A stretch of DNA of 14,509 bases from a virus (lineage: Duplodnaviria; Heunggongvirae; Uroviricota; Caudoviricetes): the IMG/VR virus record IMGVR_UViG_2778261353_000006; one strand, 5' to 3'. Below are positions 277 through 3,361 of the stretch, one piece after another. A program made the translations under genes and the position numbers. Positions within the stretch are counted from its first letter, which is position 1. Every line of letters starts with the position of its first letter. Below the pieces are notes generated by a model. It was given only the letters and a program-made list of their open reading frames with translations, made no database searches and had not been told where the DNA came from.

Positions 277-1332
277 TCATGCTTTCCACTTCAGGACACC
301 CGAATTTCTCGCGTGCATTAAAAAACGAATCAGCAACAACAGCTGGCTGCCGTGTTTTTCTTCAAAATCTTTTACCCCGGCGTGTAGTTCGCTATGGCAT
401 TTACGGCACAGCGGAATAACAAACAAATCATCAGCCTTTGTTCCCATCCCTCCCAGTCCATGACCAATGATGTGATGCGGATCATCTGCCTGATTGCCAC
501 ACGTCATGCATTTCTGCGTTTTTACCCAGCGCGTGTATACGGGCATCTCTTCCCGTTGTGGTTTCTGGCGCTGGAGATACTGAGCCGGTGACTCCGGATC
601 AACGGCAATGCTTACCACCGTCTTTTCCTGTGGCGGGTTTTGCTGGTGGGCGTGAGGCAGCGGCGCAAGATTTTTTGTGCGCTGTTTCAGGATGCTGGTG
701 GCTGTCTGCTCTCCCGGTATGATGTCGCTTTCGCGGTACACCGAGCGGATTTTTTCCGCACGTAACCCCAGAGAACGACGTAATGCTGCCTCTGGTAGCG
801 CATCCGCCACCTGATTGCAGACCGCCCACCAGGATAATTCACCCAGCGATAATTCCCGCTCCTGCGTGCCATTCATTGCGTGGCGGATGACATCAATCAT
901 CCATGCTGACAGGTTTTGATGAGCAAGTTGCTCGAGTGATTCGGATGTCTGGTCACGCAGCTGGTTGTCGCAGTGCCAGCACAACACCATTGCGCCGGTA
1001 CCATAACGATGTATGACGGTTTCGCTGTGATGATAATCGCCGTGTGGCCACTGGCAGGATTTAATATGGCGCAACAGCCAGTCAGACAATGCACCAGCAC
1101 CACCAGCAGCACGAATTACCCGTGCGTTACTGAAAAACGGCAGCAATGTTTTGTCTTCCACCAGCGGCTGGCGAACGGCAGGAACGACCCCGGACGGCAG
1201 ATTACGCATGCTTTTCGGTTCCGGCTCCACCAGAACTCGAGGGTTATGAAATACCTGCATGGATTCACGACCCGGTTTTAGCACCACCAGCCCAAGTTCC
1301 GGTACCGGAACCGGTCGAAGCAATACCCGCAC
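277..1332 (-). CDS. ydfU: DUF968-family protein (YdfU-like) with C-terminal Cys/His HNH-like zinc motif
   Basis: C-terminal CMTCGNQADDPHHIIGHGLGGMGTKADDLFVIPLCRKCHSELH. The first codon of the track ORF is GTG (1332-1330) with GGAGG 4-5 nt upstream; the next in-frame ATG at 1260 has no clear SD. Family and symbol are from recalled motif and position next to rem/hok. Confidence 0.7.
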   Translation of the reverse strand: MRVLLRPVPVPELGLVVLKPGRESMQVFHNPRVLVEPEPKSMRNLPSGVVPAVRQPLVEDKTLLPFFSNARVIRAAGGAGALSDWLLRHIKSCQWPHGDYHHSETVIHRYGTGAMVLCWHCDNQLRDQTSESLEQLAHQNLSAWMIDVIRHAMNGTQERELSLGELSWWAVCNQVADALPEAALRRSLGLRAEKIRSVYRESDIIPGEQTATSILKQRTKNLAPLPHAHQQNPPQEKTVVSIAVDPESPAQYLQRQKPQREEMPVYTRWVKTQKCMTCGNQADDPHHIIGHGLGGMGTKADDLFVIPLCRKCHSELHAGVKDFEEKHGSQLLLLIRFLMHARNSGVLKWKA

Positions 1333-1333
1333 G

Positions 1334-1612
1334 TTACCTCCAGATGCGTTGCTGGAATGTGCGGGACGGACGCGGTGGGCGTTCGGAATAAGGGAGTCTG
1401 ACGTAGATTATCCAGTGACGATAATCGAGGCTGAGGGCTTTCCTAAACTCATACCCACGTCTGCGGTAGTTATGAATCAGCCATTCGGCCTGTTCTTCAG
1501 TGCATGGGTCATGCTGGTACCAGTCTGACTTGAATGCGTGAGAATACCGCTCGTGCGTGCGGGCAAGAACGGTCGAATTATCATGATTGTAACATTTTGC
1601 GTTGCGTGCCAT
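1334..1612 (-). CDS. hypothetical protein (92 aa)
   Basis: ATG at 1612 with GGAGAA 6 nt upstream; TAA at 1336-1334 sits inside the SD of the next gene. Protein-like N-terminal two thirds; no family recognised. Confidence 0.55.
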   Translation of the reverse strand: MARNAKCYNHDNSTVLARTHERYSHAFKSDWYQHDPCTEEQAEWLIHNYRRRGYEFRKALSLDYRHWIIYVRLPYSERPPRPSRTFQQRIWR

Positions 1613-1678
1613 CGGTTTTCTCCGGTGGCACGGTGTTACTCAGCGGGAGTTCAGCCCCGCGCAAGATTGTAGATGAGT

Positions 1679-1930
1679 TTATTCTTCTGAAAAAGCAGAA
1701 AAGCCAGCTTTTATTCCGATCTCTTTCAATGCCAGTAATGAAGTGACAAACTCACCTTCGCGCAAGATAAATCCGTCTGTCACTCGAGCATCCACAAAAT
1801 TAATTAACGCAGCCCCATTCTTTCGCAAACACTTAATGCGGTAATGGCTAACAATATTTCCATTTTCAACGCACACAGCATAGAGTCCATCGTCACAAAA
1901 AATTTTATGCACTTCTTCGATGTTCATCAT
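1679..1930 (-). CDS. rem: Rem-like small prophage protein (83 aa)
   Basis: ATG-ATG at 1930/1927 with GGAAGGA SD upstream. Symbol assigned by size (83 aa) and position between ydfU-like and hok, as in K-12 Qin; not checked by alignment. Confidence 0.55.
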   Translation of the reverse strand: MMNIEEVHKIFCDDGLYAVCVENGNIVSHYRIKCLRKNGAALINFVDARVTDGFILREGEFVTSLLALKEIGIKAGFSAFSEE

Positions 1931-2047
1931 CAGAATCCTTCCGGATAATTAGCTCTCCCCTTCAGGGGGCCATCCCTCTTATCCCTGCGCGCTACTTAAG
2001 TGTTTTGGATTCTATATCCGATGTCTTAAAAAAGTTAAAACGCATTG

Positions 2048-2088
2048 AAAATAAAAACAAAAAACCGCCGAAGCAGGTTAAGTGCGGG
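2048..2088 (-). terminator. hok mRNA 3' end: GC stem followed by long U-run
   Basis: Minus strand reads ...CCCGCACTTAACCTGCTTCGGCGG then TTTTTTGTTTTTATTTT. The stem is imperfect, the T-run is strong. Confidence 0.45.
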
Positions 2089-2147
2089 TGCGTTGAGGAT
2101 GCCTGACACATCAGAGGTGGCGAGGGATTTCTCCCTCGCCTGGTCTC

Positions 2148-2303
2148 TTACTCCTCAGGTTCGTAAGCTGTGAAGACAGCGACCTCCGTCTGGCCGGTTC
2201 GGATTCGTACCTCACAGAGGTCTTTCCTCGTTACCAGTGCCGTCACTATGACGGTTAAACAGATGACGATCAGGGCGATTAACATCGCCTTTTGCTGCTT
2301 CAT
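2148..2303 (-). CDS. hokD: Hok-family type I toxin (51 aa, single TM)
   Basis: Own translation MKQQKAMLIALIVICLTVIVTALVTRKDLCEVRIRTGQTEVAVFTAYEPEE; AAGGAG SD upstream; stop TAA at 2150-2148. Too short for the supplied track. Confidence 0.85.
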   Translation of the reverse strand: MKQQKAMLIALIVICLTVIVTALVTRKDLCEVRIRTGQTEVAVFTAYEPEE

Positions 2304-2359
2304 AGCCTGCTTCTCCTTGACCTTTCGGTCCGTAAGAGGCTAATCTCTATGTGTCGCAT
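2300..2359 (-). CDS. mok-like upstream ORF (19 codons) whose TGA overlaps the hok ATG
   Basis: ATG at 2359 with GAGG SD about 9 nt upstream; translation MRHIEISLLRTERSRRSRL; ends ATGA on the hok start, the arrangement used for mok-dependent hok translation. Confidence 0.35.
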   Translation of the reverse strand: MRHIEISLLRTERSRRSRL

Positions 2360-2420
2360 AGATATGGCCTCAGATTAATGTTAAACGTCTTGCAGGACGC
2401 GTAATGTTAACTGGGGCTTT
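2350..2420 (+). ncRNA. Sok-like antisense RNA (approximate extent) with promoter just upstream
   Basis: Plus-strand -35 TTGACC (2317-2322), 18-nt spacer, -10 TAATCT (2341-2346). The transcript would be antisense to the mok-like SD/start region. The 3' end is not defined. Confidence 0.3.
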
Positions 2421-2477
2421 TCTCTATCTACCTTTGGTGTTCATGCCCGAGGCAGATAGCCTCAAGCACCCGCAGCA

Positions 2478-2505
2478 ATTCTACTTAACTCTCGCTTTAC
2501 AGCAA
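2478..2505 (-). promoter_or_regulatory. hok mRNA promoter (-35 TTGCTG, 16-nt spacer, -10 TAGAAT)
   Basis: Minus-strand reading; the predicted 5' leader begins near 2470 with GCTTGAGGCTATCTGCCTC, resembling the hok-family tac 5' element and nearly complementary to CCTCAACGCACC downstream of the hok stop (fbi-like). Confidence 0.4.
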
Positions 2506-2540: not shown

Positions 2541-3092
2541 TTAAAGCTCCATCAATTTTCCAGCCAGTTCATCCCGCGGAATTACCAGCCATCCGCGCGA
2601 TTTAAGCAAAGCCAAGGCTTCTTCAACCGTCACCAGCTGACCAGGTGCATAACTTCGGATGAAGGCGGTTTTATCATCACGGATCGCCAGATGAAAATCG
2701 ATATTCATTTTGCCCATAGCACGCTCTTTCTCGTACTGGTTGAAGTAGTTATCTTCCAGTTTTTCGAACACTTCCCATGCCTGATCGGTTTCGAGCATTT
2801 TTGCGTGGCGGGCTGCACCGCGTTCTGTCCAGAGGATGAGGGAGCGGGCTTTCGGGGAAATTTTCACCTCATTTTGCGACTCGTTTAAAACTAGTCGCAA
2901 ATTTTTGAGCTCATCACCAACAGCTTTAAAGAAGTGTTTTCCCTCAATAAATCGAGATTTATTTTCATGGTGATTCTGCTGTATACGGATTGCTTCTGTT
3001 CCGTAAAGGCGGGCGAGTAACTCAGTTGTGATTACAGGAATCTGGTTATAAGTGACAGGGGAAAGGTTTTTGACAGTAACTTGAACAGTCAT
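2541..3092 (-). CDS. ORF6N/KilA-N-like DNA-binding protein (possible antirepressor)
   Basis: ATG at 3092 with GTGAGGT SD 5 nt upstream. N-terminal region ...NQIPVITTELLARLYGTEAIRIQQNHHENKSRFIEGKHFF...WTERGAARHAKMLETDQAW has the ORF6N-like pattern as I recall it. Confidence 0.75.
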   Translation of the reverse strand: MTVQVTVKNLSPVTYNQIPVITTELLARLYGTEAIRIQQNHHENKSRFIEGKHFFKAVGDELKNLRLVLNESQNEVKISPKARSLILWTERGAARHAKMLETDQAWEVFEKLEDNYFNQYEKERAMGKMNIDFHLAIRDDKTAFIRSYAPGQLVTVEEALALLKSRGWLVIPRDELAGKLMEL

Positions 3093-3255
3093 AACGACCT
3101 CACGTTTCGATAATTTTCACCTCACCACCTTCAGGTTCCAATCATCGGGTGGCGAACTGTGCAGGGTTGGAACTACCGGTCGAAACATCCGGCGCACCTT
3201 TCGGTGCCCCCACACAGCCCGCCATAAATCGCGAATGTGACTGTGCTTAGCGCAT

Positions 3256-3275
3256 AAAAAAACCGCCAGCGCGGT
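3256..3275 (-). terminator. Rho-independent terminator
   Basis: Minus strand: ACCGC-GCTG-GCGGT stem-loop followed by TTTTTTT, downstream of the DUF551 and 27-aa genes. Confidence 0.55.
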
Positions 3276-3361
3276 ATGCACCGTTTCGATATCCGGGGTT
3301 CCAATCCCGACGCCAGATTTTGCTGGCGCGTCGGAAATATAGCCCCGGATTAGTAATTACG

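Follow-up and report, generated by a model that had tools for sequence, protein, structure and literature searches.

A complete hok/sok-type toxin-antitoxin cassette of the hokD/hokW clade in an Escherichia coli lambdoid prophage

Introduction

The type I toxin-antitoxin system closest to the one considered here is mokW/hokW/sokW, which is annotated explicitly in the Stx2 phage 933W (AF125520) and is carried by the equivalent Stx2 prophage, Sp5, of E. coli Sakai. Experiments on the Sp5 locus (Takada et al. 2021, PMC8621323) showed hokW-sokW to be a working system in which the toxin, HokW, is neutralised by a 71-nt antisense RNA, sokW, transcribed from its own promoter, whose −10 was functionally mutated; sokW vanishes after mitomycin C, and the locus doubles Sp5 phage release. 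The same study gives HokW as 44% identical to the Hok protein of plasmid R1, whose hok mRNA is known in metastable, closed full-length and open truncated conformations (PMC9841398). A third relative, hokD (relF) of the K-12 prophage Qin, is regarded as inactivated by rearrangement (PMC12214031). Here we analyse a 14,509-nt stretch of tailed-phage DNA (IMG/VR record IMGVR_UViG_2778261353_000006), referred to as the window, in which an earlier note had proposed a complete hok/sok-type locus at positions 2048-2505. The locus is, essentially beyond doubt, a hok/sok cassette of the hokD/hokW clade, ∼430 bp in length, within the early region of a lambdoid prophage of E. coli.

A scan of the whole window with Rfam places the sok/hok-leader model (RF01794) on the minus strand at 2471..2301, with a score of 101.5 bits against a gathering score of 59 (E=1.6e-22), and this margin puts the locus far beyond chance. 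The match is full-length (model positions 1-157), with 16 extra nucleotides in the Sok hairpin relative to the Rfam consensus. The remaining parts, comprising the promoters, tac, ucb, the Shine-Dalgarno (SD) sequences, mok and fbi, were positioned by exact string searches. All the parts claimed in the earlier note are present within the coordinates that it gave, with hok on the minus strand, and the outer limits of the parts coincide exactly with 2048-2505.

The toxin gene and its identity

The toxin coding sequence (CDS) is a minus-strand open reading frame (ORF) of 51 aa at 2303..2148, with the translation MKQQKAMLIALIVICLTVIVTALVTRKDLCEVRIRTGQTEVAVFTAYEPEE in the ORF listing. The protein matches Pfam family PF01848 (HOK_GEF) with E=1.2e-23 (82.9 bits against a cut-off of 22) and is 100% identical to K-12 HokD, in line with the match given in the earlier note. 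This identity, together with the syntenic placement of the gene beside rem in a Qin-like prophage, identifies the gene as a hokD allele, and hokD is also the RefSeq name of the 51-aa CDS in an identical genome sequence. The omission of the gene from the ORF track is plausible, since the default minimum of the ORF lister is 60 aa. The HokD coding sequence was among the previously characterised toxic controls in a survey of Hok proteins (10.1101/2025.08.07.668861).

The hok SD sequence, AAGGAG (2313..2318, minus strand), lies 9 nt 5' of the hok ATG and is kept in the K-12, 933W and R1-type loci. Towards the end of the gene, the Tyr47 codon TAC (2163..2165, minus strand) is followed by G, within GCTTACGAA. 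For family comparisons, 120 IMG/VR loci sharing this hok start were gathered and the 95 distinct cassettes among them aligned; TACGAA at Tyr47 is invariant in 95 of these 95 loci and is also present in hok of the R1 type and of IncF plasmids. The equivalent position is subject to adenosine-to-inosine editing by TadA, giving Tyr to Cys, in the K-12 hokC, hokD and hokE mRNAs, at a level of 6% for hokD (PMC12214031). Other small ORFs in the region, including a 57-aa frame on the plus strand (2170..2343), were dismissed as genes, being unsupported and antisense to the conserved hok CDS.

The predicted hok mRNA and its leader

The hok/mok promoter has a −35-like hexamer, TTGCTG (2505-2500, minus strand), a 16-nt spacer and a −10 hexamer, TAGAAT (2483-2478, minus strand), in agreement with the hexamer pair that had been proposed. 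The −10 is nearly invariant in the 95 related loci and lies 6 nt 5' of the position that aligns with the 5' end of the R1-type mRNA. The −35 region sits at the variable upstream edge of the cassette, where TTGC or TTGG is retained in most flank classes. Taking the 5' end from where the Rfam model begins and from the R1-type alignment, and the 3' end from the terminator, we predict a full-length hok mRNA of ∼410 nt, from 2471 to 2062 on the minus strand.

The predicted transcript opens with the translational activator element, tac (GGGTGCTTGAGG, or GGGUGCUUGAGG as RNA; 2460..2471, minus strand), which is invariant in the 95 loci and conserved in R1-type hok. Downstream of it on the same strand lie the anti-SD box ucb (AAGCCCCAG; 2411..2419), assigned from the folds, and the mok SD sequence GAGG (2368..2371), 8 nt 5' of the mok ATG. 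This ATG, at −56, opens a frame of 19 codons (MRHIEISLLRTERSRRSRL; 2359..2300, minus strand) that runs through the hok SD and whose TGA stop overlaps the hok start as ATGA, exactly the mok-like ORF that had been noted earlier. The downstream complementary box, dcb (UUAGCCUC; 2336..2343, minus strand), falls within this frame, and TAGCCTCTTAC is conserved in R1-type hok. In R1, translation of mok need not extend past the hok initiation region, stops beyond the hok start being harmless (PMC9841398); the short mok of the window would for this reason be expected to act by termination and reinitiation.

Beyond the hok CDS the minus strand carries a stable hairpin in the 3' untranslated region (GGCGAGGGAGAAAUCCCUCGCC; 2119..2140), seen in the folds and designated helix 15, in which two base pairs show compensatory changes across the family. 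By analogy with R1 (PMC9841398), it is likely to be the stem that protects the 3' end of the processed mRNA. The fold-back inhibition element, fbi (CCTCAACGCACCC, or CCUCAACGCACCC as RNA; 2086..2098, minus strand), follows, pairing with tac through 12 bp and a 1-nt bulge in both the minimum free energy (MFE) and the centroid structures. The cassette ends in a terminator-like hairpin with a UUCG loop and a T-run (2079-2048, minus strand), recognisable from both sequence and fold; it corresponds to the terminator that had been claimed, with a stem weaker than the family consensus AACCCGC-TTCG-GCGGGTT through the substitutions C>T at 2075 and G>T at 2064.

The predicted antisense RNA

On the plus strand, the putative Sok promoter consists of a −35 hexamer, TTGACC (2317-2322), an 18-nt spacer and a −10 hexamer, TAATCT (2341-2346), the same hexamers as had been described earlier for the opposite strand; the whole (2317..2346) is the positional homologue of the 933W sokW promoter. 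It is followed by a predicted Sok RNA of ∼71 nt (2353..2423, plus strand), with its ends set by homology to the sokW misc_RNA of 933W. The promoter-like hexamers and the predicted RNA are together colinear with sokW, which is both annotated and experimentally detected. The predicted RNA folds into a 5' tail of ∼13 nt, a long hairpin and the U-run UUUUCU (−27.3 kcal/mol, z=−4.8), and shows complementarity to ucb and to the SD and AUG of mok.

Predicted conformations of the hok mRNA

The 410-nt transcript (2471..2062) folds with an MFE of −168.9 kcal/mol (z=−8.95), and none of 100 shuffled sequences folds as well. The 5' tac and the 3' fbi, which had been flagged as nearly complementary, pair with each other over this long range. 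In the same structure the ucb sequence GCCCCAG pairs with CUGAGGC of the mok SD region, and the SD is thereby sequestered.

Removal of the 3' end changes the picture. In the truncated transcript (2471..2107) tac pairs instead with ucb, and the mok SD sequence GAGGC is held in a target hairpin with GCCUC of dcb, the hairpin bearing the mok AUG; the isolated 51-nt hairpin also pairs GCCUC with the mok SD. Taken by itself, the initial 32-nt segment folds into an 11-bp hairpin that sequesters tac (−18.8 kcal/mol, z=−5.4). The predicted folds therefore contain a tac/ucb stem, a mok SD/dcb hairpin and a metastable 5' hairpin, and at the level of modelling they reproduce the three conformations of the R1 hok mRNA.

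The structure derived from the window is 95.6% paired across the 95 distinct loci, compared with ∼41% when the partners are slid relative to each other. Compensatory changes are seen in pairs of helices 2, 4, 5, 15 and 16. The tac-fbi helix is 100% paired in the 95 loci; covariation lends it no support because both elements are nearly invariant in the clade.

Comparison with 933W, K-12 and R1

The 933W/Sp5 locus belongs to the same clade, has the same architecture and likewise resides in a lambdoid prophage. It shares ∼91.6% DNA identity with the window over 91% of the cassette, and its tac, ucb, dcb, fbi, hok SD and 71-nt Sok are colinear with those described above. The 933W toxin is also 51 aa long and differs only in its last residues, VDYESEK replacing TAYEPEE of the window. 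There are also differences in the regulatory region. In 933W mok encodes 70 aa in frame with hok, whereas in the window the loss of 2 nt from the target loop, together with a 1-nt insertion, leaves the 19 codons that end on the hok ATG. The Sok promoter is TTGCCT-17-TAACCT in 933W and TTGACC-18-TAATCT in the window, and the Sok 5' tail, target-loop sequence, terminators and flanks differ as well. The 933W cassette lies near the right genome end, whereas that of the window lies between the ORF6N gene and rem.

K-12 hokD encodes the identical 51-aa protein and has the same downstream genes, rem and DUF968/ydfU. The Qin prophage is colinear with window positions 406-2317 at 88% identity, a stretch that takes in the hok SD, CDS, 3' untranslated region, fbi and terminator. 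The homology ends at 2317, which is exactly the first base of the Sok −35 hexamer (L003 2789); in a three-way alignment identity begins ∼14-18 nt 5' of the hok ATG. Upstream of this breakpoint K-12 has relE-relB in place of mok, Sok and its promoter, ucb, tac and the hok promoter. Since the shared homology stops at 2317, K-12 hokD is without mok, Sok, tac and a promoter of its own. This fits the published view of K-12 hokD as inactivated by rearrangement (PMC12214031). The alignment upholds the contrast with K-12 that had been drawn earlier, and we conclude that the window copy is the intact, ancestral-type, complete form and the K-12 reference copy a truncated exception.

The hok/sok (parB) locus of R1 and IncF plasmids has the same gene set and the same predicted RNA logic, with Sok lying over the mok initiation region (PMC9841398). 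Alignment of the window with R1-type hok, a check that had been called for, shows islands conserved at tac, dcb, the hok initiation region and GCTTACGAA; DNA similarity is otherwise only island-wise. Both loci have 19 mok codons ahead of the hok start, but in R1 mok continues out of frame to a length of 70 codons and overlaps hok, whereas in the window it terminates at ATGA. The Sok hairpin is longer in the window than in R1, and the carrier is a prophage rather than a plasmid.

Variation within the family

Column entropy across the aligned cassettes reveals a sharply bounded conserved module from ∼2490 to 2060 with unrelated flanks, an arrangement typical of a mosaic phage module. Within the clade mok has three configurations: a frame of 70 aa in frame with hok, found in the majority; a frame of 68 aa out of frame with hok (L012, L029 and L035); and the 19-codon ATGA form. 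The differences between them go back to small insertions and deletions, located in the target loop and at the Sok −35, and in the L024-like class a compensating 1-nt deletion restores an in-frame mok. The 19-codon form is a minority allele, present in 12 of ∼109 related loci (the window and 11 others among L005-L124). Among these 12 at least three kinds of flank occur upstream, and at least three downstream, from which we conclude that the allele persists.

Variation is concentrated in a hypervariable patch at 2349-2368, which comprises the Sok 5' tail and the target loop and has an entropy of 0.65-0.8, compared with 0.0-0.3 for most of the remaining cassette. The ∼10 nt that follow the mok ATG, forming the loop and upper stem of the target hairpin, occur as at least nine alleles among the 95 loci, with the stem kept by covarying changes; the Sok types include those of the window and 933W and the alleles CUCUACACAC, UCUCACAAAU and AACGGCAAAUC. 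We suggest, tentatively, that the window carries a distinct regulatory allele, marked by its shortened Sok-target loop, its ATGA-coupled 19-codon mok and a stronger-looking Sok −35, and that the patch may define specificity groups. We found no description of Sok specificity groups, and the Hok survey states that Mok and Sok were left out of its analysis (10.1101/2025.08.07.668861).

Co-resident cassettes carry different target-loop alleles in E. coli ECMA0423 (two of two) and in S. flexneri SFBU1023 (three of three). We rejected this as evidence for specificity because, with at least nine alleles, a random pair differs with a frequency of ∼0.88; the observation is compatible with specificity groups and not significant.

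Integrity of the cassette

Several observations weigh against a functional cassette. A generic consensus scanner calls neither promoter of the cassette, that of Sok included, nor its terminator. The scanner requires four matches in six, TAATCT and TTGCTG falling below this threshold, and the terminator stem is bulged; we attribute the miss to thresholds because the sites correspond, by positional homology, to those of 933W sokW and R1-type hok. The two substitutions in the terminator stem are non-compensatory with respect to the family consensus. Compared with 933W, the target loop is short by 2 nt, and it is without the CUGA (YUNR-type) motif found in 933W and in IncFII hok. Franch et al. are said to have found in 1999 that a YUNR-type motif speeds Sok binding in R1. 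We rejected the missing motif as a disabling mutation, as other common alleles are also without CUGA. Finally, chromosomal hok loci tested earlier gave no post-segregational killing (10.1101/2025.08.07.668861).

On these grounds the cassette might be structurally complete yet silent or attenuated, a relic that never releases Hok, as has been proposed for other chromosomal hok loci. The weakened terminator stem and the loop without CUGA would fit such a relic, as would a G·U pair in place of G-C in the 5' hairpin, and the prophage that carries the cassette has a frameshifted holin gene and a frameshifted gene for the small terminase subunit, so that it may itself be defective. Against this, no element is broken by a stop, a frameshift or an insertion sequence, and the deviations specific to the window are mild, amounting to the G·U pair, a synonymous TGT codon and the two terminator-stem substitutions. 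All the R1-type pairings are predicted and are conserved in the 95 loci, ∼72% of the complete E. coli genomes retain the clade, and hokW-sokW, a close homologue, is active (PMC8621323). A truly broken copy is known for contrast: the IMG/VR contig L032 has a premature stop at hok codon 38 (RTG*TEV) and is a naturally inactivated copy. We therefore consider a silent relic improbable, and regard the cassette as very probably intact and working by the mechanism of R1 and hokW.

Proposed mechanism and role

Given the sequence elements, homology, predicted folds and family conservation reported here, and by analogy with the homologues for transcription, processing, Sok action and toxicity, the cassette would operate as follows. 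The σ70 promoter would give rise to the hok mRNA of ∼410 nt, the nascent 5' end of which would fold first as the metastable hairpin. In the finished transcript tac would pair with fbi and ucb would mask the mok ribosome-binding site, permitting neither translation nor Sok binding. Slow trimming of the 3' end would remove fbi, upon which tac would pair with ucb and the mok SD would join the target hairpin with dcb. While Sok is present, as an abundant but unstable 71-nt RNA from the opposite strand, it would pair across the mok SD and AUG and the duplex would be destroyed. Once Sok has decayed, ribosomes would translate the 19-codon mok, terminate at ATGA and reinitiate on hok, and the 51-aa Hok peptide would insert in the inner membrane and kill or lyse the cell. 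The toxicity of Hok and its neutralisation by Sok are here taken from hokW-sokW and are thus presumed for the window copy.

With respect to biological role, the closest studied homologue directly supports an aid to lysis and phage release upon prophage induction, in which loss of Sok frees Hok; by analogy the window copy may serve the same end, the role being less certain than the mechanism. A different role, as an addiction or stabilisation module in which loss of the prophage would be followed first by loss of Sok and then by cell death, is the one classically ascribed to plasmid hok/sok (PMC8621323; PMC9841398). It would suit a cassette that is mobile and self-contained, its flanks being unrelated from phage to phage, and the roughly four-fold enrichment of hok genes in prophages (10.1101/2025.08.07.668861). 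The failure of earlier chromosomal loci to show post-segregational killing argues the other way, and the sole direct experiment on the closest homologue gave a lysis and phage-release phenotype on induction (PMC8621323). Addiction as the main role is possible, though less probable than not.

A third role would be protection of the lysogen from other phages, host transcription shut-off depleting Sok and so bringing about abortive infection. R1 hok/sok on a high-copy plasmid cut T4 plating by 42%, as cited in PMC8621323; this effect is weak, and any extension of phage exclusion to the hokD/hokW clade would be by analogy with R1. The Hok survey found hok not to be enriched beside defence systems (10.1101/2025.08.07.668861), and we hold exclusion of other phages to be an unlikely role.

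Distribution and genomic setting

A 481-bp cassette sequence was matched in 4,725 of 5,426 complete E. coli genomes, 3,907 of which have a place covering at least 80% of it. Genomes with any match carry a median of two matching places and a maximum of ten, and 110 phage records also match. When one genome per species was scanned, the exact hok start region was found only in Escherichia and Shigella, apart from a few probable contaminant contigs. Near-identical cassettes do occur in records labelled Actinobacillus phage vB_Apl-pPE4 (H31, PP818812.1) and Xanthomonas pisi (a 431-bp contig), and in metagenome-assembled genomes labelled Veillonella, Haemophilus and a soil proteobacterium (the oddly labelled loci are L127, L130, L132, L136 and L139). 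The most likely source of these cassettes is contaminating E. coli DNA or mis-binning, and not the organism named in the label.

Over its full 14.5 kb the window shows 100% identity to E. coli UTAK-3, where it forms the early half of a lambdoid prophage integrated beside rspB. The local gene order there is ORF6N gene, hokD, rem, a hypothetical gene, DUF968 and RusA, and the placement of the locus between the ORF6N gene and rem, given earlier, is correct. The sole promoter-like site that the scanner calls in the region, TTAACT-18-TAGAAT at 2009-2038 on the minus strand, lies just 3' of the hok terminator and ∼80 nt 5' of rem (ATG at 1930), and may be the rem promoter.

Directly ahead of the ORF6N gene (3092..2541), on its upstream side, the minus strand at 3145-3342 has several Rfam matches at gathering level where RefSeq annotates nothing: isrK (3329..3256, 72 bits), a c4-a1b1 target (3342..3290, 47.4 bits) and C4 antisense RNA (3229..3145, 75 bits). 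This region looks like an RNA-controlled antirepressor (immI-like) module of the P1/Gifsy type adjoining hok/sok. Outside the window, beside the lysis genes in the late region of the UTAK-3 prophage (L002 16549-17767), lies a gene for a scabin-related ADP-ribosyltransferase, followed by a gene for the binding subunit of a subtilase-family AB5 toxin; the pair may be ArtAB-like toxin cargo.

Implications

The earlier note rated the novelty of the locus too highly. Complete loci of the hokD/hokW type are the rule in E. coli prophages, the type is annotated in 933W, and hokW-sokW has been shown to be functional (PMC8621323); neither the kind of locus nor its sequence is new. The "hokD" genes that RefSeq names so widely in E. 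coli prophages are usually full hok/mok/sok cassettes in which Sok, mok and the tac and fbi elements are unannotated. As RefSeq annotates the toxin CDS only, Sok, mok and the RNA elements represent an annotation gap rather than a discovery, and the finding matters little beyond annotation.

The polymorphism of the mok frame and the hypervariable Sok patch may be modestly new. With its 19 codons, the natural mok variant lends weight to the idea that mok need be translated no further than the hok start. The hypervariable recognition patch of Sok is a candidate specificity determinant, of interest for cross-talk between co-resident prophages: if specificity groups do exist, they would let several prophage hok/sok copies coexist in one genome without cross-silencing by Sok, an incompatibility-like diversification.

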